Shown piece by piece: positions 2,544-57,078 of a DNA stretch of 64,000 nucleotides. The stretch is taken from positions 20,698-84,697 of the IMG/VR virus record IMGVR_UViG_3300020578_005808, one strand, 5' to 3'. Positions within the stretch are counted from its first letter, which is position 1. Each line of letters begins with the position of its first letter. The notes beneath the pieces were generated by a model. The model saw only the letters and a list, made by a program, of their open reading frames with translations. It searched no databases and had not been told where the DNA came from. A program made the translations under genes and the position numbers. This stretch comes from a virus. Taxonomy: Duplodnaviria; Caudoviricetes.

Positions 2544-2556
2544 GTCTATCAATACT
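2529..2556 (+). promoter_or_regulatory. Candidate sigma70-like promoter TTGACT-N16-AATACT
   Basis: TTGACT at 2529-2534 lies inside the gmd 3' end, 33 nt before the GTG at 2562. The same geometry recurs at 7776, 11746 and 15484. Confidence 0.55.
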
Positions 2557-2561
2557 TTAAC

Positions 2562-25600: not shown

Positions 25601-28600
25601 TAATTTTTTGATATTTACCTTCGAAAAAAGAACCAATATCAACATGAGTTCTAGTAATAATATTTGGTTTTTTAGGTAAATCATTTGTTTTTCTTCTAGC
25701 AAACTCATTTCCCCAAACATGTTCTTTTAATAATATCGTTTGATCATTCGATTCACCCCCAGAAGAACATTTCAAATATAAATAAAAATCATTTAAAATG
25801 TATGAAATATTTTCAGAAATTTGTAAGTCAGGACCTTTTCTTCCAAAGCAAAATATAAATGGCTCACCTGAAGCTTCAGAATTAGTCTTGCTATCAATAG
25901 TTAAATCTTCGCCTAAATCAATAATTGAATAATTTAAATCGTCTAAATTAATAAAAGTTTTTTCAACTTTTTCTAGTGGCGTAAAAGCTTGAGTGATTGA
26001 ATCAGAAATTGATTGAGATGATTTAGAATAACCTTGATTTTGCCATAATGATTTAAAAATATGATTCTCTTCAATCTCAAAATTTTGATTTTCATACGCT
26101 ACACTTAAACCTCCTTCGATTGGTATTTCTCCGTCAGAAGCAGGATTATAATTAGCATAGTTCCAAGTTGATGCTGATACTGAAAGTGTTTTATTATCAT
26201 TAGGCTCTAGTGTAATAATTTTACCAGTAGATGAAATTAATTTTAAATCAATAGGTCTTGAACCAGAATTTAAAAATACAAATTTGCTAGCAATTCCATT
26301 GGCGTCAGGTAAAATTATTGAGTTAACATCTGTTGCGTAAGTAATTCGATAAAAATAAGAGTCTTCATTGTCAACATAATAATCTCTTGCTACTTCCTCT
26401 TTTGAAGAAGCAATAAAAAATTCTTCATTATTGTAAATAGGATTTGTTACTAAAGAATTATTTATAATTCTATTTTTACAAAGATCAACAGCTTCACTAG
26501 AAAGCCTTACTCGGTCATAAGAAAAATTAGCGCATAAATGACCAGCTTTTAATTCAGTAATAGTTTTTAATGCGTTATTTTGATTCTGCTCGTTAAATAT
26601 TTGAATATCTCCATCTGTCTTGTCGAAAATTATGGACCCATCTGGAGAAGTTCCTTGATCAAATTTAAAATCAAAACTGTCTCCTTTATCGAATACTGGT
26701 GTTTCTTTATTCTCATCAAAAGAAAGAAGTTGCAGGTTTCTAGGAGTGCTACAAATTACTTTTCCATTATAAGATCCTTCTCGATTATAAAAATCAGAAA
26801 CAGTTAAATTATTAAGCCCCGTATCTCTTATGTAAAAAACATCAAACTCATGAAAAGTTGAATCACTATCATAATAGCCAAAAACAGAAGAAGTTTTTTC
26901 TCCAAAAACACTATTCAAATTTATTTGATCAACTTCTAGACGAGCTAAAGTAGGAATTGTATCGGAAGAATTTTTTCTATAAAGTTTTAAAATCTTAGAG
27001 TTGCCTTTTATTAATTTATTTTCTAAAAGATCTTGATCTTGTTTAACTGCTATATTTTGAATTAAATTTGGCGCAAATCTGTTTTTATTAATTAAAAATG
27101 TTCCAGAGTCAGCAAAATTACTAGCGGCGGGAATTTCTAATTCAGTAGAACAAAATTTTAAATTTAATAAATTAATTCCAGATGCGCCAGTTAGATATAT
27201 AGAGGGATCAATGTTAAAAAATAAATGATTATAAGCTTCAGAAATTTCGACAATCGATGCTCTACCGCTACCTTTTTCTAAAACAACTCTAGCTATTTTA
27301 TTGTTAGCTAAAGAAAATACAGTTTGAGTTAAATTACGAGAAAACTCCAATGGAGTAGTTGATTTGTTGATAAAGTAAACAAAGGATGTAGATTTTAAAG
27401 CTGATTCAATATATCCCACATCTATTTTTGAAGAAGGAGTTTTTACGACAATTAACTGTTCTTTATCATCAGTTATTACAGTCGAAAAATCATTTGAAGG
27501 GAAAAGAATTTTTTCACTGATTACCCCCTTCGAATCTTTAGTTATTGTTAATTTAAAATCTTCCGATCCCCTAGGTAAAAAATATTCATTTGTCCCATTT
27601 TTAATTTTTAAATTTAAAGATCTATTAATTGAATCGTCTTTAAGAAAAAAGTATTCAACTGGTTGTTGATTAGAATTATCAGCTCCGAAATGAGAAATAA
27701 TAATTTCAGTATCATCTTTTAAAACAAAAATATTATTAGGTTCATTTTCAGTCCCTTTAAGAAAAACTTTTATTGAATCAAAATAATTTTTCTTATTTAC
27801 TGTTGGAGCTGCGGCAGACCCATCCCAAGAAACTAAGTTGAAAGAATCAGCATCTAGATCAACATCTCCATTAATAGACAAAGGCTCTTTAGAAAAATTA
27901 TAAATTCCAAGATTTGAATAAGATTTTGGTTTTAATTCTAATAAAGAATGATTAAAATTGACCAAGTCTTCATCAGAACTTATATAAGAAACTTGACATT
28001 CTACATTATTATAACTAGTGTTTTCGACAACCGTTGGATTATAAGATGAATTCCAGCCATTTGAAAAGTCGATCTTTTTAGTTTGATTAGCAGCGATACT
28101 AATCGAAGCTGAGTTATAGCTTATAGTTATTGAACTAGAACTATCATTAATAATTGTAGCGGTAAAAGTTTTTAAAACCCCTAGAGAAAAATCTCCGGGA
28201 TTAACACTTGCGTTCGCTGTTAAATATAAAAATCCACCATCTTCAACTTCAGCAGTTAAACTAGGCAAACTTGAAATTGCAGAAGTAGTTTTTGAAGGAT
28301 AATTTGCTACAACACCTACATAATTAGATGAGATTGATGTTGATCCCCCATTAACAGAATCAGATAAAGAACAACTACTTGCTCCCGTATTAGCAACGTA
28401 AAACTCTAAACCATCAAAAGCACTTGTAATAGAAGCAGATTTACCATCTGTAATAAAATAATAACCACTGTAATTAGAATTAATTGTAAAACCACTTTGT
28501 TTTGATTCTTTATTATCAAATTGTATTAATGAAGAATATGTAGCTCCAGCTAATAAATTATAACCGCTTTCGTAATTAGTATTTTGAATTGTATTAACTG

Positions 28601-31600
28601 TCATTGGAAGATCTGTTCCATCATTTCCAATGGGATTATTGTTAAACAATGCGGAAGCATTAACAGAAGCTTCTTGAGTAGTTGGCAACGCCCCTGAAAC
28701 TATAATATTATAATATCCAGAACCATTTACCGGAAAGTTAGCCAATCCTAAATCAAAATACTGTTGTTTAACATTTGGTATAACAAAAGAAGTGTTATTG
28801 TTAACCGTTTCTGTATTTAGCAATCGATAATTATTGCCACTATCTACTTGATAAATGTTAAAATATTTTGATTTATTATCCCAATTCCAATTTACTTGAA
28901 TGGGTAAAAAATTAACTTTTCGGATAATATCAACAGTTTCAAAAGGAGAATGAAGTTTTTCGTATTTAAAAACTCTAAATTCGTAATCACTATCATCTAG
29001 AAATCTTGAAAGATTAGTTCTAAAAGCTATTAAAGATAAATAATTTGGAGTTGAAGTATCTTTTAACTTGTAAGAATAAGGACTTAAAAAAGAAGAAACA
29101 GACCCAATGGTTCCATTTGTCAATTCTTCAGAATTAGGCATTTCAGACCAAGAGTTGTTAGTTTTCTTTTTGTATTGTAATTTATATTCCCACCCATCAT
29201 TTTGCTCTATCGAATAAGGAAATCCACTATCTCCTAAAATAACTAAATCTTTGACGTAAAAATTATACTTTACTTTAATTATTTTTAATCTTCTTGTTCT
29301 AGAAAAATTATTCACGCCGCCGACAATTAAATTTTCTTTAAATAAATTGCCATCGTCTTGAGTGAAATTTAAAATATAATCATTTTCTACCTCATAATTT
29401 GATTTAGCTTCTTTAATAACTAACGTATTATTTAAAACTCCATCAGCAAAACTATTTACATCGCCTCCCTTAAGAGGTGTTCCTTCGTAATTTTTAGAAG
29501 TTGTAGGGCCATTAGGCAAGTTCAGCAAAATTTCCCCTATTGATTTTTTATCCTCTGGAGCATCTTGGAAAAATCTAGGAACAGTTAATCCAAATGAATC
29601 ATTTGCACCATAATTATCATCATTAATAGGATTTTGTTTGTGAGTAAACCAGCTAGTAGACGAAATAGAAGGAATTGCTGAATAGTTGTATTTTTGTAAA
29701 TTAAAAAATACTTTTGATTCATCAACTAAATTATTACTACCATCAACAACTGAAGTATCAATTGCTCTGTATTCTACACCATTGACTGTTATTAAATAAG
29801 TTTTATGTCCAAGACCTTTTTTAATAAATTTTAAAACAGCTGCTTTACTTAGTGAAGTAGATGCAGTTTCAGCGTTTTTAACATTAGCTTTTACTAAAGT
29901 TAATAAATCTGTATTGAGAGTATATTCATATAAATGATAAGAATAATCTCTTTCATTTTGATCCGGTATAGAAATTGTATTATTTTGTAATCCATTCCAA
30001 GCAACAAAATCAGACAACCCATTATAAGAGAAAGCGCTTCCAGTTACATACTCCAATCGATACATTTGATTAGCATTAAGCTTTGTATCTGTAGAGTATA
30101 CTGTACCATAAGAATCTCCTGTTCCATATGTTAAAACGGAGTCTCCATTTGAGTTCGTTCTTGAAATAAAACTATCAAAAATTATGTTTTCCTGATAATC
30201 GTGAGACTTAAAGTAAAAAACACCCTTATCATCTCTTGCTGCAAAATCTTTATCAAAAACTTGAACTGCATATAATTTTTCCTGAGGAGTGTCAGATAAT
30301 TCAACATTAGCAAAAGAATTAAAACCTGTATCTAAAATATTATTTAATAAACCTATTTGATCTTTATCGTAACTTTCTACATAAATCTCTCTTTCTACAA
30401 AAACAATTGGTGTTTTTTCCCCTTGAGGATCTTGAGAAATAAAATCTCCAGAACCTTTACTTACTAAACCATAAGCATTTCCTAAAGCTTTAGATAAAGC
30501 AACTCGTCTTGCATTTACAGAATCAGTTGGGAAAATATCGCAAGATGAAATATAATTTTTTACATAATAATAATTTAAATTATCAGCCCATCGATCAGTA
30601 GTTATATAATTAGATTTAGTAATAACTCCATTTGCAGGAATTGCTGTATCAATTCCATTCAAGAAATATATCCCATCGATATAAGGCATGCTAGCGTAAA
30701 TAGCAGTATCCCCAACACACAGACCTGTTTTATTAATGTAAACACCACCGCAAGTAGAATTAACTATTGTTCTATAAAATTTATCATTATATTCGTCAAT
30801 ATAATAGCCAAGCTGGCCATAACCATCTCCATAATAAATATAATTAATATTACTATTATAAGAATTTAAAGGCAAAGCTATGTAATTTTCTCCAGAATTT
30901 AAATAGTTAGAGTAATAACTTTCTTCCACTGATTCTTTGGGCAATGGTAAAACAGGAAGAGTAAATTTTTCAATTATTCCCTGAGAATTAGAATTATTTA
31001 AATCTTGAATTTCCTTATCATCAACCCATCTTCTTGTTACATCATCAGAATTTAAAGACCCTAAGCTTGGATTTGAGAATGGATCATCTTGTAAAAGTTG
31101 ATTCATTAAATCTAATCTACTACTAACATCTTGCTTCAGATTTTTAACTAAATTACTTTCGTCGCCATAATCTACATTCGCCGCAGCTTCTTGAGCATAT
31201 TCCTCGCTGTAAATTAAATCATCAACATTGGCTAATTCTAAAAGTTGATTTGTATTTAATTTTGAATAAGGCAGAACTCGGGGGTAAACTCCTGAATCTG
31301 TTGTAACATGATATACTATTGCTGAAGATCCGTTTCCTGTGTCAACTCCTGTTAAAAGGTAACCTATAACATCTGCCTTTGAAGTAGCGTTGTATCTATC
31401 TAGGCTAAAAGATAATCTATAAATATCAGAAAAATTTCCTGTTGGCAATATTCTAAAATTAAACTCATCTTCGTTATCTTTAACGCTTCTAAATAATTCT
31501 ATTCCTGTAATTGTTGAATCATTAATTGGTCTTATTACAGATTGATTGTCTTCTAAATTATCAAAAACCCCTTTTGGAAAAACTAATTTATCTAAAGTAT

Positions 31601-32390
31601 TAAATTGATAAGAAACTCTAGAAGCAGCTACAGAAGAAACTTCATCTTGAAATTGAGAATAATCAATAAGTATTTTCCCATCTTCAGTAACCTCAGGAAT
31701 ATAATAAGATCCAAGGGGATTGCTTTTTCTACAAATTCGATATTTTATTCTTGTTCCATCTTCTATCGTTACGGAAGGTTCAAAAAGAGAAATATTTTGA
31801 ACCTCAGAATTATTTTCATCATCATATAAAAATTTATATCTTGTAGCGACCTCATTGGAATATCCAGAATATTGATAGTCATAATATCCATATTCTCTAT
31901 CAGTATTATTCGAATTTACTGAAATATTTGTTTGAATCCAATCTTCCCCTGACAAATTTAAAACTTCATAATCACCAACAATAGACTTGGTTAAACCAGT
32001 AATTTCTTGTTTTCTATATAATTTACCAGCGTTATCCATATCTGGCATTATAATTAATGGTTTATAACCACTTACAAAAGAAGTACTAATGTCTGCTGCT
32101 ATTTGTGTATCTGCGTAATTTTCAACTCCTTTAGTTCCTGAAGTTAGAAAAAATCTAGCGTCAGGATATTTCCCATCAAAATTGTAAAAAGAAAATACTT
32201 TTCCAGTTATTACATAATCAACAGTGGTGATGTCTTGTATTATTGGTCTTGGATAAATATATCCATTAGGAGAGGAGTTAAGATTATCAAAAACTGTAGC
32301 CCAAAGGCCAAAAACATATAAATCAAAATCAACATTAGGATCGTTTAAAATTCCAGTAACAAAAGACTTATTTTGATCTAAAACACTCAT
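22689..32390 (-). CDS. Giant (3233 aa) tail fibre/receptor-binding-like protein with degenerate beta-sandwich repeats
   Basis: Uninterrupted 9.7-kb ORF in the tail operon with recurring F-x-[FVI]-x-N-x-[ST]-x3-[LI] segments. Confidence 0.6.
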   Translation of the reverse strand: MSVLDQNKSFVTGILNDPNVDFDLYVFGLWATVFDNLNSSPNGYIYPRPIIQDITTVDYVITGKVFSFYNFDGKYPDARFFLTSGTKGVENYADTQIAADISTSFVSGYKPLIIMPDMDNAGKLYRKQEITGLTKSIVGDYEVLNLSGEDWIQTNISVNSNNTDREYGYYDYQYSGYSNEVATRYKFLYDDENNSEVQNISLFEPSVTIEDGTRIKYRICRKSNPLGSYYIPEVTEDGKILIDYSQFQDEVSSVAASRVSYQFNTLDKLVFPKGVFDNLEDNQSVIRPINDSTITGIELFRSVKDNEDEFNFRILPTGNFSDIYRLSFSLDRYNATSKADVIGYLLTGVDTGNGSSAIVYHVTTDSGVYPRVLPYSKLNTNQLLELANVDDLIYSEEYAQEAAANVDYGDESNLVKNLKQDVSSRLDLMNQLLQDDPFSNPSLGSLNSDDVTRRWVDDKEIQDLNNSNSQGIIEKFTLPVLPLPKESVEESYYSNYLNSGENYIALPLNSYNSNINYIYYGDGYGQLGYYIDEYNDKFYRTIVNSTCGGVYINKTGLCVGDTAIYASMPYIDGIYFLNGIDTAIPANGVITKSNYITTDRWADNLNYYYVKNYISSCDIFPTDSVNARRVALSKALGNAYGLVSKGSGDFISQDPQGEKTPIVFVEREIYVESYDKDQIGLLNNILDTGFNSFANVELSDTPQEKLYAVQVFDKDFAARDDKGVFYFKSHDYQENIIFDSFISRTNSNGDSVLTYGTGDSYGTVYSTDTKLNANQMYRLEYVTGSAFSYNGLSDFVAWNGLQNNTISIPDQNERDYSYHLYEYTLNTDLLTLVKANVKNAETASTSLSKAAVLKFIKKGLGHKTYLITVNGVEYRAIDTSVVDGSNNLVDESKVFFNLQKYNYSAIPSISSTSWFTHKQNPINDDNYGANDSFGLTVPRFFQDAPEDKKSIGEILLNLPNGPTTSKNYEGTPLKGGDVNSFADGVLNNTLVIKEAKSNYEVENDYILNFTQDDGNLFKENLIVGGVNNFSRTRRLKIIKVKYNFYVKDLVILGDSGFPYSIEQNDGWEYKLQYKKKTNNSWSEMPNSEELTNGTIGSVSSFLSPYSYKLKDTSTPNYLSLIAFRTNLSRFLDDSDYEFRVFKYEKLHSPFETVDIIRKVNFLPIQVNWNWDNKSKYFNIYQVDSGNNYRLLNTETVNNNTSFVIPNVKQQYFDLGLANFPVNGSGYYNIIVSGALPTTQEASVNASALFNNNPIGNDGTDLPMTVNTIQNTNYESGYNLLAGATYSSLIQFDNKESKQSGFTINSNYSGYYFITDGKSASITSAFDGLEFYVANTGASSCSLSDSVNGGSTSISSNYVGVVANYPSKTTSAISSLPSLTAEVEDGGFLYLTANASVNPGDFSLGVLKTFTATIINDSSSSITISYNSASISIAANQTKKIDFSNGWNSSYNPTVVENTSYNNVECQVSYISSDEDLVNFNHSLLELKPKSYSNLGIYNFSKEPLSINGDVDLDADSFNLVSWDGSAAAPTVNKKNYFDSIKVFLKGTENEPNNIFVLKDDTEIIISHFGADNSNQQPVEYFFLKDDSINRSLNLKIKNGTNEYFLPRGSEDFKLTITKDSKGVISEKILFPSNDFSTVITDDKEQLIVVKTPSSKIDVGYIESALKSTSFVYFINKSTTPLEFSRNLTQTVFSLANNKIARVVLEKGSGRASIVEISEAYNHLFFNIDPSIYLTGASGINLLNLKFCSTELEIPAASNFADSGTFLINKNRFAPNLIQNIAVKQDQDLLENKLIKGNSKILKLYRKNSSDTIPTLARLEVDQINLNSVFGEKTSSVFGYYDSDSTFHEFDVFYIRDTGLNNLTVSDFYNREGSYNGKVICSTPRNLQLLSFDENKETPVFDKGDSFDFKFDQGTSPDGSIIFDKTDGDIQIFNEQNQNNALKTITELKAGHLCANFSYDRVRLSSEAVDLCKNRIINNSLVTNPIYNNEEFFIASSKEEVARDYYVDNEDSYFYRITYATDVNSIILPDANGIASKFVFLNSGSRPIDLKLISSTGKIITLEPNDNKTLSVSASTWNYANYNPASDGEIPIEGGLSVAYENQNFEIEENHIFKSLWQNQGYSKSSQSISDSITQAFTPLEKVEKTFINLDDLNYSIIDLGEDLTIDSKTNSEASGEPFIFCFGRKGPDLQISENISYILNDFYLYLKCSSGGESNDQTILLKEHVWGNEFARRKTNDLPKKPNIITRTHVDIGSFFEGKYQKINIEDLGGLLLIPFYRECVTFYLPNLKASVSVNENRFTLGELLEDKKFVFVNLVKNNTNSPNQIYNYSDTTTNTNLTEVNSVCIFYVYLNGANYEWKKQTVALPKVQNCFAELKNLKGISLESCSNVTSGNEFVYLPNLNTFKISLDSFENKQFQNFYVYNSCNYPLSVIFNNSSVLKLSSSSAPFNRVSFNGSSFTINPIVYNASTNFIESEILQVPKSDQLVGIANVSFPKPAENSYLKLNYYQSDIRSQRFFSLLKAKDGLWSPVDIESAQNYAFLNLFDLETYDSNSKLFIYGSSIRNQNGYVFDQCELRLTGCDIINDSFFFFNNTLGILKIYFDDSTYSLSLDPLRLAVIYKESGVLKFKYCESHQTSKFYISYRNKNTNFLLDKNISLFVDSCQTIDVRSLSIIENENDNIASDVLLTLHSGKFASCYFNHSFLTNLTPDFLPGVNFINSLSVYSFPTISYFGSRDWYSSPVALLKPTYKLTSHGHYIITNQESTVSLTPYSNNTFLVNNTASDILVKTPDYNVSLYHNTVLVINNSSFRYLKKAKNKDECYAVFNPKTLISTQREVSLVLGIEQHQEILPVSNIDFVQTQSYLKLYSKNNQTETVFLNFENYYKGAEIPNDCPQNILAYELGIGHETIYKFLFFDPSSNYYTLPGIKEGTEYMVEINEGLFYNLFLGDKINDSTISFGSVRYMGKTYYNGQSFIGGKSFWYEIDYPNYVRVSKVVREIPEGFIADPKSQIEEGLADLTIIETENSDKLAGFKDFIFSNIGSSLSLKYGEVASLCWIPDSQNAFWLESNFNKDIWSIQTIYPDSTVKLTFQENGETKELSFVKCAFKKGILKSPILNYGYTFYSALQEKLVMSDTGEITTAFDYGLTPSQKNKFKSSVINKYYVDDYLYSDKAFVFGSLPRNSLLQIDTETPSQLKTSTFDITISLEKMSSMPTLNVEDFNNDSAVQILNQDYE

Positions 32391-46842: not shown

Positions 46843-49800
46843 TTATACAGATTGTGGACCCATTTTTCTTGCAAATTGAGTTGGGAATTGATCTTGTAAA
46901 AATTCCATTACAGCATAAACTTTGTCCGATGTTGTTTGAATGGTTCTCTGATCATTGATATTTATAACATTAGAATTAGTAACTGAAGAACCAGCTTTTT
47001 CAAAGTAAGGCGCAAGTGCTTTTTGCATAGCTTCTCCAACGGCACCAGCAAACTGTTCTGGTGCAAAGTTAGGAACAAATCCTTTAGAAGCGTATCCTAA
47101 TTGAGCTTGTTGAGCCGGATTTAATATAGCATATTGTTCATTAGAATTTTTGGGTTTTGCTCCAAATAATCCCATTCTATTATAAACTTCAACTGCTGGT
47201 ACTTCTATTTCAGCGCTATTTTTAACAATGTTCTTATAATATTTAGAAGGCTGAGGAGTGGCGTTTCTGTAGCCAGAATAATCAGGACTATTTAGCACAT
47301 CTAATTTTTCTCTTGAAAATGCTGCTGCCATGCTAAAATTAGGAACAAAACCTGAAGATTTATTCTTTTTTCTTTTCCTTAATTCTGCTGGAGATATTTT
47401 TAGTTTTTTAGCTTCGTTAATTTCTGACTGAGTATAGTATACGCCTTGAATAAATTGACCTTCGATTCCAAAATTAGTTGCTGCAGCTTGCTTCCTTTCT
47501 GCTTGAGCTAACTTTGGCATTCCCATTCTTCTGTTTCCAAATTTAATACTTTCTACTGAAACTCCTTTATTATAAGCTTGTTGAATCTGATCGTTAGAAT
47601 AAAAACGGCCATTTATTGTTTGCCCATATGTTTGGGGGTTAATTATATTTTTATCAACAGCAGGTAAAGGAGGCAAACCTAAACCAGCGCGTACAAATCT
47701 ACCAGCCCCTTCCGTTTCAGGAATAATTTTTTCAACTGCGACCCCCCTATTGAATGCTTCTTGTCTTTGGGCTGCAGTTGCTCCCCGTAAACTCTCTGCT
47801 TCTCTAGCTGATCTTTCTCGAAATTCTTTTGTAGCTTCAGCAGTTTCTTGGGCTCTAGCAAATTCAGCTTTGCGTTTATTTAATAATTCTGGCTTTGTAA
47901 CTCCTTCTACATAAAAATCACTTTCTTTAGGATTAATTAATCTACGCTCAGACTCTGCTGTATTTTCTTTTTCTTTTTTATAAGCTTGGTAAGAATCGTA
48001 CAAGTCTTCATTACCTTTAAAATTCTCTCTAGTAAAAGCCCCAAAAATTCTTTCTTGAGATATTAAATAATTAGCCTTATCTCTTGAGGTGAATAATTGA
48101 TTCGTTTCTTCATTTTTAATTACTCCTTCAACTAATTTGCTTCTAGTATCTGATTCTTGTTGACGAAGTTCTTTTTGTTCTTCTGAATTTCTTTGATCGA
48201 TTTTTCTTAGCTCTTCTCGTTTCGCAGCGGCAGCAGCAGCAATTTCAGCTTGCTTAGCTTTTTCTTGTCTAGCAATTTCTTCTTGCTCAGCTCTTTTTCT
48301 TTGCTGTTCTTCGATATCTAATTTATCTTGCTCTAATTGCTCTTCAATTGTTAATTTGCCTGATGAGTTTTTAACAAAATTAGGAATAAATCCTTTAGAC
48401 ATATTTCCTAATCCTGCTTCTTTTTCTTCTAAAAGTTTTCTTTTGTATGCTAAATAAGCTTCTAGAGAAACTTTACCCTCTACGACATCTTGCTTACTAA
48501 TTCCTTCGCCTAAATCAGATTTTTTAGCCCTACGAGCGCGATCTGCCATTGTTGAACCTGCGTAAAGAAATGATTCTCCAAGCATGTTTCCAATGCCTAG
48601 TTTTTCTTCTAAGACATTACCTCCTCTATATCCATAGCTAGCGGCTAAATAAGCTTGACCAACTGGATTAAAAGCAAAAAGAGCGTCGAATCCTAATCCA
48701 GCAACACTTGAAGCAATATCAAAACTATTTCTATATTTTTTCCCAGTAACTGGATCTACCGATTGACGACCTAAAAAGATATCGCTAAAATCTTCTGCTA
48801 TTTGATTATTTTTTGATAACGCGATTTCTGAACCTAAACCCAAAAATGATGCGGCTGGTAAGATTTTACCACCGAGACTCATTCCCTTTTTAGTTAAAGA
48901 AGCAAGTAATAAAGAACCTTCAGCGGCTTTTAAACCAGCTAAGCCATAATTTTTTTCTTGAGCTTGTCTAACTGACTCTCCAATCGCGCCTAAACCACCC
49001 AAGGCAATAAGTGGCTTAGTTATTTTTCCAGCTACTCCAGAAGCAGCTCTAATAAGTTTTCCAGCTTTACCTGATAAAAACTTAGAAACTCCTCCGAAAG
49101 CTTTACCAGATAATTCAGACATTCTAGAGGTAACATTTGAATTTTTTATTCTAGATCCTATGTGTTTTATTGAATTTATTACTGAAGATTCTTTAATATT
49201 GATTTTAGGCGTTCCTATAGGAGATGGAGTTGATCCCGCTGGACTTTGGACGACTGGCAATTGAGGAGGACGAGACGAGAGAGATAAAGGATTTCTTGCG
49301 GGCGACTCAGGTGGAGCTACTCCTTCAGGTTTATTTCCTATAACATTTTTAACTAATTTACTTAAAACACCTTTTCCTATAAATCCGCTAGATCCTTCTG
49401 CATTTGTTGGATTAACTTCAAAAACAATTGTACTTACCCTACCTCTTCCTCCTGAATAAAATTCTTTTGGTTTAACTCCAGCTTCAATCGCAGCTTCTAA
49501 ACTAGTACCCCCAACATCGACACCAAAAAATGCATTTCTAATATTTTTTGTTCTGACTAACTCTCGAATATTTTCAAATGCTGTTGATTCTGCAGTTTTG
49601 CGAAATGATTCAGCCATTTTTACTGCTTGTGATTTTGATAATCCTGCTTTTCTATAGGCTTCAACAGATGGTTGAGAAGTTGGATCAAACCCAGTAGCTT
49701 TTAAAACTGTGCCTCCTTTAATTATTTTAATTTTACCGTCTTTATCTACCGCAACATGAACGCGCAATTCATTATAATAAGTCGGTACTTTATTTTGAAT

Positions 49801-52800
49801 GAAAAATCCGCTTCCAGTTCCTTTATTATATTTTTCTATTATAGATCTAGTATCTTTTGTTGTTAAGGCACCCCCTAATCCATAAACTCCTTTGCTTTGA
49901 TAATTAGCATTACCAAATGCAGTTTTGACAAGAACCGATCTTCCTTCGGAAAGTTCATTTATTTTATCCAATAAATTTTTAGGAGTCAATCGGCCATCTG
50001 ATTTTAATTTAGCTATGATTCGATCTATTTGTTTAGACCTTGCAACAGAAGGTAATTTCAACTCATCTAATTTAGAAACTTTGGGATCTTTTAATGATAA
50101 AATAGATTGACCACTTTGGAAGCCTCCTTTTAAAGTTGCCGTTGAAATCATTTTAGCGTCTTTTGGCAACTTACCTTCTGTAATGCCTCCTTCTTCAACA
50201 GATCCATCAGGATTTACTTTTCTATAAATATCATCTATATTGTCCCAAACATAAAGCTTACCTGCTTTAGCACTTAAAGCAGCTTGTTGAGCCTCATCTT
50301 TTCCAAAGGCCGCATAATTTGGTATAAAACCAGAAGCTTTCGATGCTATTGAATTATTTTCTAAGTTTAATCGACGTAAAACAGAAGATGGATCTTGCTC
50401 TAAAAAAGGATAATTATTTAATTTTTTACCTGTTTTTTTATCTGGATAACGCCAAATTGTTTTATTTTCTTTAAAAAATTTAGGTAAATCCGCTATAGGT
50501 ATTTCTCCTCTTATTGTTACTGGGGCGGTTGTGGCAGAAACCGCGCCCCTAACTGTATTTTTTAATCTACTACCAAAAGATCCGCTTGTTGTATCTTGAT
50601 TACTTATTGCGTATTGAGATCCCGTGGCAATATTTTGAGGAACTGGATCCATTTTCGATTTAAAATAATCAGCCAAACCTCCCTCTCCGGGATGAGGATC
50701 AAAATCCCAACGATCAAAAAACTTAAGCTTACCTCCTTCAAAGGAATATCCATAATTACTCATTACGTCATGTCTTCCTGCTGACGCTCCTTTAACTCCA
50801 CCAGAAGAAACAAAATCTAGTCTCGCTTGAACTGCATTTAAAACAGCTCTCCTAAATAAATTTTTACCTTCGTCTGTGTTTTGATTAAATCCTATTGACT
50901 TGTCTGGATTTTTTACATACCATTTCTGCCAATCTGTTTGAGGCTCTAAACCGAACATCCATCTATAAAGAGGCTCTCTAAATTCAGTTCGACCTTCCGA
51001 GGTGTAAGCTTTTTCCTGATATCTTTTTTGTAAACTTTTAGTTGGTTTATCTAAAACTACAGATGGAATTAGACCAATTTCATCCTGACCCATTTGTCCA
51101 GAAACTAAATCATAACCCTTGGAGGCTAAATCGTAACCCAAAGGAGTAGTTAAATTAGTTAAAAATCGACCAACAGTTTTACTAATCAACGGAATTTTTG
51201 CAGTTCCGGGCTCATAAATTTCTTCTGGTTCATTAGCAAAATTAGGAATAAAACCTTTAGAGGCTAATCCAATACTGGCTAAGCCATTAGGTTCATCTAT
51301 TGTATTTGTTACCGCTAACCCCATAGGGTTACGGCTTGAAATTAATTTTTCACTTTGATTAACTCTTATAGAATTAAATGGAACATATTGACTCTCTCTA
51401 GCTATAGCTTCTCTTAATGGATCGTAAAAACTTGGAATAAATCCACCACTTTTAGTAGTTGGCGCAGCGGCTGGAGGATTAGCTTGCTGAGCGTTCCCCA
51501 AGCCAAGAAAACTCATTACATCATTTATAATAACAGTAGAATTGAAAGCATCAATTTTACCATTAGTAAATTTAAAACTATCTCCCAAAGAACCTCGAAT
51601 TGCGTCGGTAATATTTTTTTGTAAGCTAGCTCTAAATTCTTCGTTTTTACGAGTTTCTGCTTCTACCTTGGGAAGATTTTCGGATTCAAGTTTTCTAAGA
51701 GATCTATCTTCTGCAAATTTAGCTCCTAATGAATCTAAACTATCTTTAACAACATCACCAAAGTATCTAATAGCTTCAGCTGGATCTTCTCCAGTTTGTA
51801 ATTCTGCGCCGACTTGTGTTTCTGCAATATTTCTTAAAGATAAAGTATCTGTTGCTTTAGTTCTTAAAATATTAGCTGTTCCTGCAAGACCTACAGATTG
51901 TAAAACACCTGCATCTCTAAATAAATCCTTTTGTAGGTCTCTTGTCCTAAGGGCTACTAATCTATCTGTGACTGATTTTAAATCAACTGATTTATCAATC
52001 ATTCCGGGATATTTCTCCTGAATAGATTTTAAAAGATTTGTTAGCCCAGAAACCTGAGACCTTTCTGAACCTAGCATTGACCCGAGCCTATATTGAAGAG
52101 CACCAGTTAAAGGAGCATTAATAGAAGCAATTCTTGAGGCTGCGTCTGTAGATGTTTTTATTCCCCCTGCAAAAGATAGTTTTTCTTGTATTTTAAGAAC
52201 TTTTAATTGAACTTCTTTGTTAATTTCTGCAATTTTAGAAATTTGCTCAAGTTGTTTTGTTTGGCGCTCGCTACTAATTGCTAATTCTTCTAAAGAATCT
52301 CTTTGTTTTTCATTGAGATTCTGATCCTTTGCCATTTCTCTAATGAGACTAGTTGTTTCATCAGATGGTTTTTCAATTTTACCTAAAGCTTCAGAAATAT
52401 TTCGTGGTAATTTTAAATCTTTATCTGTTGCTTTTAGATTAAGTAAGTTTTTAAAAGAAGAAGAAACCTCTAATGATTTTTTCATTTTATCGGCTTCTAC
52501 CCCAAAAGAAATTGCAGCTCTTGGTCCGAATTGAGAAGCGAAACTACTTAAATCATTTATTCCTTCTCCTAATGCTTGAGTTCTTACGGATCTTAATTCT
52601 CTAGCTCGATCTATTTCAGCTCTTTGTTTGATTTCGCTTCCCCTGATTTCACTTATTTTTTTATTTGCTTGCTTATTAACTTCTAAAAATTTAATTTCAC
52701 TATCTACAGATTGTAAAAAAAGTGGAAGTAATTTATCTTTAGTTGTTTTGTCAACCGTGTTAAAAAATTCTAGTAGATATTCTAGTTCAGATCCCTGAGC

Positions 52801-55800
52801 TATTTTTTCAAAATTTTCAGGTTTTAAATCTGCAGATGTAAATTTAAATAAATTTTCTCCAGCAGTAGAAATTAAACGTGAAAAAGATTTATTTAATTCT
52901 TCAGGCGTTCTAATTTCTCCTGATTTAAGCGCTACAAGTTCTTCTTTACCGGTTTGTTGTCGAGTAGCTTTTCTACGGGCATCTTCTATAATTTCAATTC
53001 TCTTTTCTAAATTAGGTTCTGAAGCTAATTTAGAGGATAATCCGGGGTTAGTTCTTGATAAATTCCTTACTAGTTCTGATTCTCTTTTTGAAAGTTTGAT
53101 TAATTGTTCTGGTGCTGTTGAGGCGTCTTTAAAAGCGGCATCTAATTTAGATAATGTATCAACTAATTCTTGGGTACCTTCAGTAACAGATTTGAACTCT
53201 CTTGCAGAAGCATCGATTTCTTTTTCTAATTTTCTTCTTTGTATATCTTGAGTAATTTGACCTGATGAAAGAAGATTCAATCCACCTTGAGCTAATCCAA
53301 CACCAATCGGAACACCGGCAGCGACAGCTCTTCTACTAAACGGCTGACCTTTAGATTGTTTTAAACCTCTTCTTGCTCCTAAAATTCCTCCTAATAGTGG
53401 GATTCCAACTTGAAGAGCAGTATTTACTTCTGGGCCGATTCTTTCATTTAAATATAATTCATTTAATATAGAGGTAACGCCTGCAAGACCGAATGTTTGT
53501 AAAAAAAAGCGTATGAAATCTTTTGATGCGCTTTCAGAATCTGGGGAAGCTTCTATAGTTTTTCTTGTAAATCTTCCTCTAGCGTCTCTTGGGAGACTAG
53601 GTCTTGCGAAATTGGGAACAATATCTTTAAGACCATTAGGTTCGTCTCTTTTATTTGTTACGGCAGTTGGATTTCCTTTGCCGTCGAAGTGAGCCATGAT
53701 TTGAGAGGCTGGTAAACCAGTCATCATTTTTTCTCTATTTATGGCATCTGATAAACCAGCAAAATTAGGAATGTATCCATTAGCTCTTGATATAGAAATA
53801 AGACTATCTGGTCCTAACTTAGAAACTCCCATTTCAGCAGCTTTTTTGAAAAAATCTCTTCTAGCTTTTGCTTTTTGTGGTACATTTAATAAAAATTCTA
53901 GATTTTCTAAACTAATCTTATTTGGATTATCATAGAAAAACTTTAAAATTCCTCTATTGAAATTTTGTCCTTTCGCATCTTTAGTACCCATTCTTCCGCC
54001 AATCCAAGTTGCAGCTTGGACACCTAAACCGCTAACACCTGCCCTAGCGCCTACGTTTCTAAAAGCTTGAGAAACCTTGTCATACTGCTCCCTGTTCATG
54101 CTGGGGGCATTTTTTACATTAAATTCTTTATTTAAAGCATCTCCTTGTGCTCTATAATCGACAGTAACATCTTGGCTGCCGAAAGGATCAAGCATGTTAT
54201 TTACGAATGCTTTTCTCTTATTGCCAGTAAGATTTTCTAAACCAACAAGTAGATTTGCAGCTTTAAGTCTATTTGCTCCATATGTTTGAGCTGTAACCGA
54301 TGCTATTTCTCTCTCGTCTAAAAATATTGGAGAGGCTATTGTTGAAAGTTTCTTCTGAGTAAATAGATTATATCTTAAAGCATCCAAAGCATTTCTCTCC
54401 AATGGATTTGCTGGAGAAAGAGCCGACATTACACTTGCAAATTTCTCAGGAGAAGTTCCTGATGCTTTAGAAAATACTTTAATTAAATTGTTATAATCCT
54501 CATAAGCTCTAGCAAAGTATTTTTGATTTTCAGGACTTAATTTTTCAAAGTTTTTTGCTATATTAGCCTCCATCTCTGCGGATGAAATGCTTGGGAATTT
54601 ATATTTATCTTTTTTAGCAAAATTAGGAACATATCCAGAAGCTAAAGGAGATCCTATTATATAATTACCAGTCTTCTTTTTGATATCAAAGTATTTAGAT
54701 ATTTCTTCTAAATATCCAGAAGCTGGCAAATTACGTTGATATCCTTTAGATGTCGGCGCGCCTATTCCAGACTTATTTCCCTCATAAATACCAAAGAAAG
54801 CAGATCCCTTTGGCTTGATTGATTTGCTAATAAATTTCAGCAAATCTTCTCTAGCTGGGCCTTCTTTTATTACATTCAGAACATTAGCTATAGTAGCAGA
54901 ATCTGCTGAACCGAAAAAATCTTTTAATGTTTCTTCGTTGAATTCTTTTGTTCTATTGTATGGATCATAAACTCTAGATTTAATTCTAAATTTTTTTGCT
55001 AGGAAATCAGTCCCTGTGTCATATTTTCCTCCTCCGATATCTATATTGCGAGGCCCTAATTGCCCTCCAAATTTTTTAAATAATCCTGGAACTTGATTTA
55101 ATGATGTTTCTGCGGAAGAAATTTCTTGAGAAAAATTCGGAATATATCCTTTAGACATTCTGGGGATGTCTTTCATTTTTCTATATCTAGGAATTATTGC
55201 AGTTTCTCCAGTTCCAGCGAAATTAGGAATCACGTCTTCTTCGCTGTTGACCATTACTGGTTGAGTTTTTCCTTTAATTGTCGCGTTTATTAATTTCGGA
55301 ACAGGATTTTTAGCTCCAAAATTTTTGGCTTGAGAGACTTCTTCGGCAGCCATCGATGTTGCAAAATTTGGAATATATCCACTTGCAGATCTCCTTGGTC
55401 TTCTAGTAGATCGCGCTGCTGGAAGTTGTGTTATATCCGTATACCCTCTAGTTCTTAAATCCGAAGCTAATACTCTAGATAAAGAAACTTGTCTTTGTAA
55501 TTCTAAATTAATTCTTTTAATTTCTTCAAAGACTTGTTTTCTTGCTCTAGCCTCATTGTACGTTGATGTAGCTGTATCTTTAGTTAATCCAGAAATTCTT
55601 TGCATAACTCCGCTAATTTGAGTCTGCAAGGCTAATCTTTCTCTTTCTTTTTCTCCAAATAGACTACCTCCTGTAACATATCTTCCAAGAGGATCTGTAA
55701 TTTCTTTAGCTTGAGTTTTTAAAGAGGCTCCTATAAACTTTATTAACTTAATTCCTAAGCCAGCCCCAATTGTTGCTAAAACCGGACCACCTGTATATAA

Positions 55801-57078
55801 GAAAAAGTTTCCTAAAGCATTGGAAAGGCCCTTAGTTATTTCTTGACCAGCGCCCTTAGCCATCGCTTGGCCAGCATTGATTCCAGCTTCTTCAAATTTT
55901 TCTGGAGATAATAATTTTAAACCAAATTGAATAGCGCTAGTGCCACCGGTAATTAATGGTCCAAATAAATTTTTACCAAGATCCGAACCTACTTGAGTAG
56001 CTATTGCTGCTGTTTGAGAAATTAAAGCGCTGTAACTTTTATTTAATTGCTCGTTCTTTTTTATTGCTTCATCAGTCGCCGAAATAGAAATCTTTAAAGA
56101 ATTAGAATAAATACTATTTGCGCTAGATAAGTCTCTTATAACAGCTTGTAATTGGTTAATTTGATAAACACCACCAAGTAATTCAGCTGTTCTAGATTTT
56201 TCAGCTTGACTTAAGTTTTTTGTTGCTTCTGAATAATTTTTTAAGATTTGAATACCATTAAGTAAAACTCCATTTTGATCTTCGACTACAACTCCTAATT
56301 GTCTTAATTGATCTAAAATTTCTGGTCTTCTTACTCTTGTAAAAATAGTTTTTAAAGCGTTACCGATAACAGCGCCACCACGACCAGTAATTTGCTGCGC
56401 TGTTGTAATCGTTGCAACTAGCTCGTCAAAAGATAGCCCGCTTTCTTCAGCCGAACTTCCTACGCGGGTTAAGGCTTCGCTAAGCTGAGCTGCACTAACC
56501 GCAAATCTAGAATCAACAGCAATAAGTTTACTTATAATTTCAGTACTACTAAGAGCTTCTTTATTAAATCCGTTAATTGCTGTTGTTATGCTATTAACTG
56601 ACTGAGCGTAATTTAATCCTGAAACCCTTGATAATACAAGAGCATCATTAGTTCTTTTGAGCGTTTCTTCTGTAGATAAGCCTTGCCTCGCAAATTCTTT
56701 AGCTGCTTCAGCGACATCCGAAAAATTAGTGGCAGTGGCTCTTGCTATATTAAATAAACTTTTACCGAATCTGTCTAAATTTTGCTGAGACTCTCCTAAG
56801 AAAGTGTTTAATTCTACTAATTGTTTATTAACTTCAATTGTAGATCTTGCGGCGGCAGAAATTGCTTTATTTACTGCTAAAATACCACCTGTAATCGCTC
56901 CGAATGCTGTAACGCGGGCAGCGGCAGCTTGTAAAGATTTTGAAAATTCCGCAGCGTCACTACTAATTCTTCCTAAAGGTTGAGAAATACCCCTATTGAG
57001 CTTTGATTTAAAAATATCAATGTCTCTATAAGCTCCTGCTGTATTTATCCTAAGATCTGCAACGATTGTAGTAGGCAT
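46843..57078 (-). CDS. Tail tape measure protein (TP901-type core) with embedded enzyme-like cassettes
   Basis: N-terminal core: VAEAAKEFARQGL...SVNSITTAINGF...LSEALTRVGSSAEESGLSFDELVATI...IGNALKTIFTR. Canonical position after the tube and chaperone genes. 3411 aa. Confidence 0.93.
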   Translation of the reverse strand: MPTTIVADLRINTAGAYRDIDIFKSKLNRGISQPLGRISSDAAEFSKSLQAAAARVTAFGAITGGILAVNKAISAAARSTIEVNKQLVELNTFLGESQQNLDRFGKSLFNIARATATNFSDVAEAAKEFARQGLSTEETLKRTNDALVLSRVSGLNYAQSVNSITTAINGFNKEALSSTEIISKLIAVDSRFAVSAAQLSEALTRVGSSAEESGLSFDELVATITTAQQITGRGGAVIGNALKTIFTRVRRPEILDQLRQLGVVVEDQNGVLLNGIQILKNYSEATKNLSQAEKSRTAELLGGVYQINQLQAVIRDLSSANSIYSNSLKISISATDEAIKKNEQLNKSYSALISQTAAIATQVGSDLGKNLFGPLITGGTSAIQFGLKLLSPEKFEEAGINAGQAMAKGAGQEITKGLSNALGNFFLYTGGPVLATIGAGLGIKLIKFIGASLKTQAKEITDPLGRYVTGGSLFGEKERERLALQTQISGVMQRISGLTKDTATSTYNEARARKQVFEEIKRINLELQRQVSLSRVLASDLRTRGYTDITQLPAARSTRRPRRSASGYIPNFATSMAAEEVSQAKNFGAKNPVPKLINATIKGKTQPVMVNSEEDVIPNFAGTGETAIIPRYRKMKDIPRMSKGYIPNFSQEISSAETSLNQVPGLFKKFGGQLGPRNIDIGGGKYDTGTDFLAKKFRIKSRVYDPYNRTKEFNEETLKDFFGSADSATIANVLNVIKEGPAREDLLKFISKSIKPKGSAFFGIYEGNKSGIGAPTSKGYQRNLPASGYLEEISKYFDIKKKTGNYIIGSPLASGYVPNFAKKDKYKFPSISSAEMEANIAKNFEKLSPENQKYFARAYEDYNNLIKVFSKASGTSPEKFASVMSALSPANPLERNALDALRYNLFTQKKLSTIASPIFLDEREIASVTAQTYGANRLKAANLLVGLENLTGNKRKAFVNNMLDPFGSQDVTVDYRAQGDALNKEFNVKNAPSMNREQYDKVSQAFRNVGARAGVSGLGVQAATWIGGRMGTKDAKGQNFNRGILKFFYDNPNKISLENLEFLLNVPQKAKARRDFFKKAAEMGVSKLGPDSLISISRANGYIPNFAGLSDAINREKMMTGLPASQIMAHFDGKGNPTAVTNKRDEPNGLKDIVPNFARPSLPRDARGRFTRKTIEASPDSESASKDFIRFFLQTFGLAGVTSILNELYLNERIGPEVNTALQVGIPLLGGILGARRGLKQSKGQPFSRRAVAAGVPIGVGLAQGGLNLLSSGQITQDIQRRKLEKEIDASAREFKSVTEGTQELVDTLSKLDAAFKDASTAPEQLIKLSKRESELVRNLSRTNPGLSSKLASEPNLEKRIEIIEDARRKATRQQTGKEELVALKSGEIRTPEELNKSFSRLISTAGENLFKFTSADLKPENFEKIAQGSELEYLLEFFNTVDKTTKDKLLPLFLQSVDSEIKFLEVNKQANKKISEIRGSEIKQRAEIDRARELRSVRTQALGEGINDLSSFASQFGPRAAISFGVEADKMKKSLEVSSSFKNLLNLKATDKDLKLPRNISEALGKIEKPSDETTSLIREMAKDQNLNEKQRDSLEELAISSERQTKQLEQISKIAEINKEVQLKVLKIQEKLSFAGGIKTSTDAASRIASINAPLTGALQYRLGSMLGSERSQVSGLTNLLKSIQEKYPGMIDKSVDLKSVTDRLVALRTRDLQKDLFRDAGVLQSVGLAGTANILRTKATDTLSLRNIAETQVGAELQTGEDPAEAIRYFGDVVKDSLDSLGAKFAEDRSLRKLESENLPKVEAETRKNEEFRASLQKNITDAIRGSLGDSFKFTNGKIDAFNSTVIINDVMSFLGLGNAQQANPPAAAPTTKSGGFIPSFYDPLREAIARESQYVPFNSIRVNQSEKLISSRNPMGLAVTNTIDEPNGLASIGLASKGFIPNFANEPEEIYEPGTAKIPLISKTVGRFLTNLTTPLGYDLASKGYDLVSGQMGQDEIGLIPSVVLDKPTKSLQKRYQEKAYTSEGRTEFREPLYRWMFGLEPQTDWQKWYVKNPDKSIGFNQNTDEGKNLFRRAVLNAVQARLDFVSSGGVKGASAGRHDVMSNYGYSFEGGKLKFFDRWDFDPHPGEGGLADYFKSKMDPVPQNIATGSQYAISNQDTTSGSFGSRLKNTVRGAVSATTAPVTIRGEIPIADLPKFFKENKTIWRYPDKKTGKKLNNYPFLEQDPSSVLRRLNLENNSIASKASGFIPNYAAFGKDEAQQAALSAKAGKLYVWDNIDDIYRKVNPDGSVEEGGITEGKLPKDAKMISTATLKGGFQSGQSILSLKDPKVSKLDELKLPSVARSKQIDRIIAKLKSDGRLTPKNLLDKINELSEGRSVLVKTAFGNANYQSKGVYGLGGALTTKDTRSIIEKYNKGTGSGFFIQNKVPTYYNELRVHVAVDKDGKIKIIKGGTVLKATGFDPTSQPSVEAYRKAGLSKSQAVKMAESFRKTAESTAFENIRELVRTKNIRNAFFGVDVGGTSLEAAIEAGVKPKEFYSGGRGRVSTIVFEVNPTNAEGSSGFIGKGVLSKLVKNVIGNKPEGVAPPESPARNPLSLSSRPPQLPVVQSPAGSTPSPIGTPKINIKESSVINSIKHIGSRIKNSNVTSRMSELSGKAFGGVSKFLSGKAGKLIRAASGVAGKITKPLIALGGLGAIGESVRQAQEKNYGLAGLKAAEGSLLLASLTKKGMSLGGKILPAASFLGLGSEIALSKNNQIAEDFSDIFLGRQSVDPVTGKKYRNSFDIASSVAGLGFDALFAFNPVGQAYLAASYGYRGGNVLEEKLGIGNMLGESFLYAGSTMADRARRAKKSDLGEGISKQDVVEGKVSLEAYLAYKRKLLEEKEAGLGNMSKGFIPNFVKNSSGKLTIEEQLEQDKLDIEEQQRKRAEQEEIARQEKAKQAEIAAAAAAKREELRKIDQRNSEEQKELRQQESDTRSKLVEGVIKNEETNQLFTSRDKANYLISQERIFGAFTRENFKGNEDLYDSYQAYKKEKENTAESERRLINPKESDFYVEGVTKPELLNKRKAEFARAQETAEATKEFRERSAREAESLRGATAAQRQEAFNRGVAVEKIIPETEGAGRFVRAGLGLPPLPAVDKNIINPQTYGQTINGRFYSNDQIQQAYNKGVSVESIKFGNRRMGMPKLAQAERKQAAATNFGIEGQFIQGVYYTQSEINEAKKLKISPAELRKRKKNKSSGFVPNFSMAAAFSREKLDVLNSPDYSGYRNATPQPSKYYKNIVKNSAEIEVPAVEVYNRMGLFGAKPKNSNEQYAILNPAQQAQLGYASKGFVPNFAPEQFAGAVGEAMQKALAPYFEKAGSSVTNSNVININDQRTIQTTSDKVYAVMEFLQDQFPTQFARKMGPQSV
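47063..55389 (-). repeat. Dispersed peptide repeat S-x-G-[FY]-[IV]-P-N-[FY], 12 copies (2 partial), inside the TMP
   Basis: Copies at about 55361-55389, 55217-55233 (VIPNFA), 55128-55155, 54617-54642, 53759-53784, 53606-53622 (IVPNFA), 51427-51450 (GFIPSF), 51236-51264, 50312-50337, 48374-48399, 47332-47358 and 47063-47091. The + strand core AAATTAGGAA recurs in several copies. Confidence 0.92.

Follow-up and report, generated by a model that had tools for sequence, protein, structure and literature searches.

Background

Tail tape measure proteins (TMPs) of phages are known as rulers of tail length and as formers of membrane channels. In this report we consider a giant TMP of an uncultured phage of the class Caudoviricetes, encoded in a stretch of 64,000 nucleotides (positions 20,698 to 84,697 of the IMG/VR record IMGVR_UViG_3300020578_005808; the whole stretch is referred to below as the window). 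Judged by its residues and its predicted structure, an internal segment of this TMP is a catalytically complete ATP-grasp domain of a new and very divergent family, which from the sequences collected so far occurs only within giant TMPs of one lineage of uncultured large phages. We call these phages large because related contigs from IMG/VR and from metagenomes reach 153-175 kb.

The closest described enzymes are the classical carboxylate-amine ligases with the ATP-grasp fold (DcsG, Ddl/VanA, BacD/YwfE, PurD, LysX/ArgX, RimK, TTL/TTLL). The TMP domain resembles them in its predicted fold, with Z of 10-12 over 170-235 aligned residues, and in having the strand-2 lysine, the G-x-G-V loop, the hinge glutamine, the E-x-R motif, the aspartate and the E-x-N motif. 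It differs from them in being beyond the reach of Pfam and HMMER, in a reduced N-terminal subdomain and a longer glycine loop, in the linker lysine, which is not conserved, in an insert of about 27 residues, in the additional invariant residues H2441, D2445 and K2460, and in never being a free enzyme.

Among phage proteins, the stand-alone RimK-like proteins of cyanophages S-RIM8 and S-RIM12, Pelagibacter phage Mosig and Yersinia phage YerA41 (g112) should be considered. They are likewise encoded by phages, are the nearest named clusters in ESM Atlas, and served as the template of the significant hhalign match described below; they differ in being separate genes of about 260-470 amino acids (aa) recognisable by Pfam RimK or by BLAST. 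The product of YerA41 g112, a "ribosomal protein modification protein", was identified by liquid chromatography with tandem mass spectrometry (LC-MS/MS) in purified particles (PMC7354516, Table 3). Many replication enzymes were found in these particles as well, so contamination is possible (PMC7354516), and g112 is a weak precedent, by analogy, for an ATP-grasp protein associated with the virion. The record MW570730.1 annotates the RimK-like ATP-grasp gene YerA41_066 as a "structural protein"; we assume that g112 and YerA41_066 are the same gene. The RimK-like proteins of Mosig (L016) and YerA41 (L017) have in common a C-terminal extension of about 150 aa, which is found neither in RimK nor in the cyanophage versions.

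The enzymatic modules of TMPs known to us act on peptidoglycan or membranes and do so without ATP. TMPs with enzyme or effector modules (muralytic motifs; the effector Sle1 of a contractile injection system, CIS) are similar to our case in that the TMP scaffold bears a modular domain leaving the tail on firing; an ATP-dependent ligase differs from them in implying action in a cytoplasm. CIS effectors derived from TMPs, such as Sle1, carry exchangeable functional domains (PMC13277306).

A further parallel is provided by the polyvalent proteins (Iyer et al. 2017, PMC5512222), giant polypeptides with several enzyme-like cassettes, which are thought to enter the host together with the DNA. Several cassettes are also present in the TMP considered here, namely DUF7178 (aa 830-1026, by Pfam), the ATP-grasp domain and unassigned inserts; Pfam recognised no processing metallopeptidase in it, nor was a MuF or portal link seen. 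The paper on polyvalent proteins makes no mention of tape measure proteins and mentions ATP-grasp only as RNA ligases (PMC5512222). The R2K clade (Cdc123, R2K.2, R2K.3) is also similar, being a divergent group of ATP-grasp proteins with E-x-R, some of which are found in phages and in toxin loci of the type VI secretion system (T6SS). Our full-text searches of the literature found no description of a TMP with an ATP-grasp or amidoligase domain, and a survey of jumbo phages mentions the tape measure protein just as a DNA conduit, with no link to ATP-grasp.

Results

The TMP is encoded by a single uninterrupted open reading frame (ORF) of 3,411 aa, according to the ORF list and the translation (Table 1). 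A first-pass annotation had proposed that an ATP-grasp ligase domain is embedded in this protein at 49381-50311 and had quoted six motifs for it. The interval is correct and corresponds to aa 2256-2566 on the minus strand, which had gone unstated; all six motifs are found, in the order claimed, at aa 2334-2558; and the same ORF carries an N-terminal PhageMin_Tail core. This N-terminal part matches Pfam PhageMin_Tail with E 8e-29 and 14 tape-measure families of PHROGs (the best with 1e-51). According to tblastn, this part is 25-28% identical to the TMPs of Lactococcus 949-like phages and of Bacillus phages.

An AlphaFold2 model of the domain was built on the family alignment. It has a predicted local distance difference test value (pLDDT) of 74, mostly 80-97 in the core, and a predicted template modelling score (pTM) of 0.67. 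All listed Foldseek matches in PDB with E<=1e-3 are ATP-grasp proteins (among them the biotin carboxylase, BC, domains of acyl-CoA and pyruvate carboxylases, TTL, VanA, PurK, Ddl and DcsG). A wide search by VIA-align, which is independent of Foldseek and covered 48,161 representative chains, gave ATP-grasp enzymes for 50 of the 50 matches listed, among them DcsG with Z 11.0 (root-mean-square deviation, rmsd, 3.2; 181 residues aligned), PurD (10.8), BacD (10.6), Cdc123 (9.9) and a RimK-domain protein (9.4). When VIA-align was applied to the top 1,000 chains of Foldseek, 512 of them had Z>=8, and the 50 matches listed were again all ATP-grasp (SAOUHSC_02373 12.3, DcsG 12.1, Ddl 11.9). The top matches in BFVD are an ATP-grasp protein of a Cellulophaga phage and TTL and Cdc123 proteins of giant viruses. 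ESM Atlas, used as a lead only, has as nearest neighbours free-standing ATP-grasp proteins of phages, about 260 aa long and in part RimK-like.

A model of the most divergent member of the family, L004 (32% identical), provides a partly independent check of the fold. Its pLDDT is 69, and VIA-align again lists ATP-grasp proteins in 50 matches out of 50 (among them DcsG, Z 10.1, and BacD, 9.7). The predicted fold, which the first-pass annotation had proposed to examine by Foldseek, is thus ATP-grasp in both models, with a central RAGNYA subdomain and a C-terminal subdomain of the protein-kinase/PIPK type.

Libraries of sequences are silent on this domain: neither Pfam and PHROGs nor the searches of PDB sequences by phmmer or hmmsearch returned anything relevant, and the matches to Ppx-GppA (E 0.1), chalcone isomerase (0.6) and OprF (0.02) were considered noise. 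Comparison of profiles was more productive. Since the homologues of E. coli RimK (among 120 listed) are mostly about 90% identical to it and unusable as a profile, the template alignment for hhalign combined eight RimK-like genes of phages with E. coli RimK. The local match of the family alignment to this template spans the linker, the RAGNYA subdomain and the E-x-R strand and scores 39.9 (P 1.5e-4). Among the controls, the reversed template gives 17.4, column-shuffled templates do not exceed 15.8 and block-shuffled ones do not exceed 23.4 (20 of each shuffle), so the score is 1.7 times that of the best control. In the extended and global alignments the catalytic residues of the domain fall opposite those of RimK. 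The comparison with single sequences of RimK and DdlB is weak by itself (E 0.044 and 0.21, respectively). The motif invariance, the hhalign controls and the two structure models together confirm, at the level of sequence and prediction, that the resemblance exceeds chance.

The list of positions in the ATP-grasp catalytic template of Burroughs et al. (PMC4431377) matches the conserved residues of the TMP domain, and these residues lie on the strands of the model where that template requires them. K2385 is the final residue of model strand 133-136 as determined by DSSP. The template sets the aspartate in the fourth strand of the kinase-like subdomain and E-x-N where the fifth one ends, and D2521 and E2554-x-N2556 occupy such places. 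Besides the residues listed in Table 1, T2386, H2441, D2445, P2557 and the two glycines after E-x-N are identical in 14 of 14 members, as is K2460; in total there are 31 invariant positions among members that are 32-65% identical. The glycine-rich loop aligns with the G-x-G-V motif (G-I-G-V) of RimK with an insertion of 3 residues; it is disordered in both models, with pLDDT below 50 at model residues 139-146. The N-terminal subdomain is probably a reduced pre-ATP-grasp domain, as judged from the model, and the VIA-align alignments to PurD, BacD and TTL begin at model residues 22-25 and at about residue 1 of the matched chain. An insert of about 27 residues lies between the aspartate strand and the E-x-N strand. 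According to these data, the set of residues and the predicted fold would be sufficient for binding of ATP and Mg and for acyl-phosphate chemistry, and they are under strong constraint.

The counterpart of the classical linker lysine is a special case. In the profile alignment VSKLDE falls where the N-terminal subdomain ends and does not coincide with the "DK" lysine that binds ATP; opposite the DK of the template hhalign has a gap, and the likely equivalent of this DK is D2352 with the next residue. The near-invariant K2336 or the invariant K2460 might replace the linker lysine. A loss of this lysine does occur within the ATP-grasp superfamily, in the R2K clade (PMC4431377).

The first hairpin of the domain (domain residues 18-47, window about 50191-50280 on the minus strand, G-K-L-Y-V-W-D ... 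Y-R-K-V-N-P-D-G-S) gives weak HMMER matches in multiple stretches to beta-propellers with NHL repeats. Several weak hits were rejected for this reason: P0011 and P0013-P0015 are NHL-repeat propellers matching only domain residues 18-47, and P0016 and P0017 match the same stretch. From the sequences, this likeness is probably a mere resemblance of short motifs. Another hit, P0012, is a dockerin protein and not a relative.

The first-pass annotation ascribed the motifs to the signature of RimK and glutathione synthetase. Its reading of functions holds for the strand-2 lysine, the hinge glutamine, E-x-R, the Mg aspartate and E-x-N; the assignment to that family does not hold. No Pfam ATP-grasp family matches any of the 10 members tested at E<=5, including the RimK family (PF08443 with RimK_N, PF18030), and because of this we do not assign the domain to RimK/GshB. 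The structures of RimK have Z 7.0-10.4, no better than others, and Z reaches a plateau of 10-12 across Ddl, DcsG, PurD, BacD, CPS, TTL, LysX and RimK with no single family ahead. The R2K clade was considered as well, as Cdc123 matches the two models with Z 9.9 and 8.1. Members of that clade are characterized by the absence of a G-x-G motif in the loop that connects strand 2 to strand 3 and by a second conserved Lys or Arg there (PMC4431377). In the TMP family G-x-G-V is invariant, there is no second conserved lysine in the loop, and the loop residue before this motif is K, L, Q or Y; R2K was therefore rejected. The E-x-R motif marks an assemblage that consists almost wholly of ligases forming peptide-like (peptide or amide) bonds (PMC4431377). 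Its invariance places the TMP domain among the ligases of peptide or amide bonds.

A HMMER search of 1.84 billion cluster representatives detected nine true relatives, all of them within long proteins with the exception of one fragment of 167 aa. Scans based on alignments, run on contigs of viruses and metagenomes, enlarged the family to 14 distinct sequences (32-65% identical), all of them metagenomic. Scans of viral and genome contigs with patterns from a single protein found no relatives of the domain, and tblastn against 50,697 phage records gave no match to it and no close relative of the phage. The complete relatives have the TMP core; the proteins that carry the domain are tail proteins of 2,100-3,700 aa, and the domain is always internal. 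No stand-alone domain appeared when proteins of 91-601 aa were searched with a profile, and longer proteins yielded only more fragments of TMPs. One relative, L009, seemed to have its TMP split into genes of 1,967 and 1,191 aa; this is a scaffold gap, a run of 10 N at L009:5889-5899.

Between distant relatives, the domain is conserved better at the sequence level than the rest of the TMP: it is 41% and 38% identical to that of P0006 and P0007, respectively, while the TMP core is just 22-23% identical. The TMPs are mosaic: in comparison with P0010 (from L004), the flanks of the TMP are 59-73% identical and the ATP-grasp region only 27-32%; the closest ATP-grasp relative, 65% identical, comes from a different phage (comparison with L008). 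This mismatch between flanks and domain suggests an exchange of cassettes within the TMP. Just upstream of the domain there is also a cassette of 292 aa, which sits exactly between two copies of the motif described below. It is missing from the complete P0010, P0004 and P0008 and the partial P0003, where the flanking modules join directly. Pfam gave no match to this cassette, and ESM Atlas no useful neighbour.

The window contains ten strict copies of the motif G[FY][IV]P[NS][FY]. All ten are in the frame of the TMP, with zero in the other five frames, and the motif is usually preceded by S/A-x and followed by A or S. As the first-pass annotation noted, the domain starts right after a copy of this motif, and GFIPNYA directly precedes it. 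In the relatives the number of copies is 1-7, with none in P0006 and P0007, which keep the domain; hence, the domain does not require the motif. The motif may mark a junction, or it may serve for cleavage or docking.

Downstream of the domain, the proline-rich linker is followed by a segment similar to a glycine zipper. A stretch dense in GxxxG is found in 8 of the 8 relatives examined (P0002-P0008, P0010), starting about 55-510 aa after the domain; the TMP of the window is below the strict GxxxG count and has motifs of the small-xxx-small type instead. These glycine-rich segments resemble the translocation motif of Tde1 and TMPs (PMC10240207). Glycine zippers are common to the T6SS effector Tde1 and TMPs and are needed to translocate a fused enzyme into target cells (PMC10240207).

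The order and sizes of genes around the TMP recur beside homologous genes on other contigs, and almost none of the neighbouring tail genes is recognised by Pfam or PHROGs. A second giant ORF of 3,233 aa (window 22689-32390, minus strand) lies downstream within the same tail module, with ORFs of 1,154, 1,082, 904 and 1,162 aa near it; Pfam found no family in those of these neighbouring large ORFs that were scanned. The G+C content is about 31%.

Table 1. Position of the TMP, its ATP-grasp segment and accompanying features in the window (aa, residues of the TMP)
Feature	Residues (aa)	Window position	Strand	Basis
Giant tail tape measure protein, 3,411 aa		46843..57078	-	ORF list, Pfam, PHROGs, tail-module gene order common to related contigs
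TMP core domain PhageMin_Tail	113-301	56176..56742	-	Pfam, 101.3 bits vs cut-off 33.2
Cassette of 292 aa, just upstream of the domain	1951-2242	50353..51228	-	BLASTP segment maps
Repeat copy G-F-I-P-N-Y (GFIPNYA), immediately before the domain		50314..50331	-	pattern scan
ATP-grasp domain (fold core about aa 2264-2566)	2256-2575	49354..50313	-	AlphaFold2 model; Foldseek PDB, VIA-align and BFVD matches
Short N-terminal subdomain, one helix and four strands	2259-2311	50146..50304	-	DSSP of the model
VSKLDE	2334-2339		-	translation
VLVKTAFGNANYQSKGV	2382-2398		-	translation
K2385, conserved Lys ending RAGNYA strand 2 (predicted ATP phosphate contact)	2385	49924..49926	-	invariant in 14; aligns with E. 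coli RimK K141
Flexible Gly-rich loop, G then [GS]-x-G-V-[YF]-G	2389-2400	49879..49914	-	G140, G148, V149, G151 invariant
FFIQNKV	2425-2431		-	translation
Q2428 of F-F-x-Q, hinge strand (adenine side)	2428	49795..49797	-	invariant; aligns with Q of RimK/phage "vQEyi"
NELRVHV	2436-2442		-	translation
E2437-x-R2439 (E-x-R)	2437-2439	49762..49770	-	invariant; aligns with RimK D-I-R; model strand 185-195
K2460, invariant family-specific Lys, candidate third phosphate contact	2460	49699..49701	-	14/14 members; putative role
FFGVDV	2517-2522		-	translation
D2521 of F-G-V-D, predicted first Mg2+ ligand	2521	49516..49518	-	invariant; middle of model strand 267-277; aligns with RimK G-V-D
IVFEVNPT	2551-2558		-	translation
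E2554-V-N2556, E-x-N motif, predicted Mg2+-binding	2554-2556	49411..49419	-	invariant; end of model strand 299-308; aligns with RimK E-V-N
Pro-rich linker, then Gly/Ala-rich glycine-zipper-like segment		48799..49332	-	sequence
Motif copies		55363-55380, 55132-55149, 54619-54636, 53761-53778, 51427-51444	-	pattern scan
Further motif copies		51238-51255, 50314-50331, 48376-48393, 47335-47352, 47065-47082	-	pattern scan

Discussion

The position of the domain suggests delivery of a preformed enzyme to the host cell by the tail. Since ATP is confined to a cytoplasm, the site of action would be the newly infected cell or, alternatively, the producer cell. We tentatively prefer the former, the action of a TMP-borne ATP-grasp ligase in the newly infected cell, and by analogy with known TMPs consider its chances close to even, though somewhat short of that. 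The course of events could be as follows. At infection the tail would expel the TMP, whose glycine-zipper-like segment, located downstream of the domain, would insert into the membrane; the ligase domain would refold at the cytoplasmic face, where ATP is present. Prior to the expression of any phage gene, the refolded domain would then join an amino acid or an amine to a carboxylate of its host target, which is most likely a protein. The fate of other TMPs is relevant here. TMPs leave the tail ahead of the DNA, and the TMP of lambda was the sole phage protein robustly labelled during injection by TurboID fused to the inner-membrane protein ManZ (PMC13190303); as labelling by TurboID needs ATP, the lambda TMP would be exposed to the cytoplasm.

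Several points weigh against delivery of an active ligase. Three copies of a folded domain of 35 kDa are unlikely to fit the lumen of the tail tube, which would make it necessary to store the domain unfolded, and few copies of the TMP enter the cell per infection. The activity of the segment, its presence in the virion and its arrival in the cytoplasm are predictions from sequence and model. As to the domain proper, the lysine of the linker "DK" is not conserved (after D2352 there is R in this TMP and S, G, P or K in the relatives), the glycine loop exceeds the usual template by 3 residues, and only about 50 ordered residues are left of the much shortened pre-ATP-grasp subdomain. Finally, Pfam and PHROGs recognise no sheath or tube family among the neighbouring tail genes, and the tail may be contractile or not.

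It is tempting to extend the idea of delivery and to propose that the TMP as a whole is an enzyme-delivery polyprotein: the cassette would be stored unfolded, threaded through a glycine-zipper channel, refold on ATP and tag a host protein with amino acids within seconds of adsorption, and cassettes would be swapped at the G[FY][IV]PN[FY] junctions. The targets of such tagging could be a ribosomal or defence factor or a factor of envelope biogenesis. We regard this extended proposal as unlikely in its entirety; if true, it would mean a post-translational takeover of the host with no expression of phage genes.

The alternative that survives best is an active ligase that works in the producer cell, while tails are being assembled or earlier, on the TMP, on another tail protein or on a small molecule, with its carriage by the TMP being incidental. 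ATP is certainly present in the producer cell, where the copies of the TMP are far more numerous than those delivered; ATP-grasp enzymes acting on proteins and peptides are common (RimK, TTL, LysX, graspetide ligases); and the ten copies of a conserved peptide motif in the TMP could be sites of modification. However, G[FY][IV]PN[FY] is absent from P0006 and P0007, whose domains are still 41% and 38% identical to this one, so the motif is no obligate substrate, and work in the producer cell leaves unexplained why the domain is constantly fused to the TMP and never encoded by a separate gene. We consider this alternative improbable but serious.

A second alternative is that the domain binds ATP and is no ligase: it could be a folding ratchet or sensor that pulls the TMP and the DNA through the membrane, or nothing more than a spacer within the ruler of tail length. 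After ejection a globular insert has to refold, and we infer that folding driven by a nucleotide would give this process a direction; moreover, the pre-ATP-grasp subdomain, which normally aids in binding the acceptor, is strongly reduced. Against the ratchet, the Mg ligands, the arginine of E-x-R and the G-x-x-G after E-x-N are all invariant, beyond the needs of nucleotide binding; against the spacer, 31 invariant positions would not be expected in it at identities of 32-65%. This explanation appears to us quite doubtful.

The ATP-grasp fold could also be used here for kinase or phosphotransferase chemistry, as in ITPK1, PPIP5K and rifampin phosphotransferase, and not for amide bonds. These enzymes are indeed among the structural matches (ITPK1 with Z 8.3 and 7.5, PPIP5K2 with 7.6 and 7.0, rifampin phosphotransferase with 6.8), but they stand 2-4 Z units below the ligases, and the E-x-R motif is typical of the assemblage of peptide and amide ligases (PMC4431377), which makes chemistry of the kinase type very unlikely. 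That the motif pattern arose by chance in an ordinary filler of the TMP, as the absence of all matches in Pfam, PHROG and PDB sequences might suggest, is hardly credible and, within the limits of predicted structures, is refuted by the two models, four structure searches, the controls with shuffled profiles and the invariance of the motifs across the family.

Conclusions

We believe that the novelty of the reported observation lies in a combination: a known fold and TMPs known to be modular are newly joined, with implications for the mechanism. As the ATP-grasp family is invisible to sequence libraries, similar cargo in other tail proteins has probably been missed. An intact ATP-dependent ligase in a TMP implies either that a part of the TMP refolds in the host cytoplasm or that the TMP doubles as an enzyme of the producer cell. 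Either outcome would alter the view of this class of proteins, and the fate of the TMP after ejection becomes directly testable.

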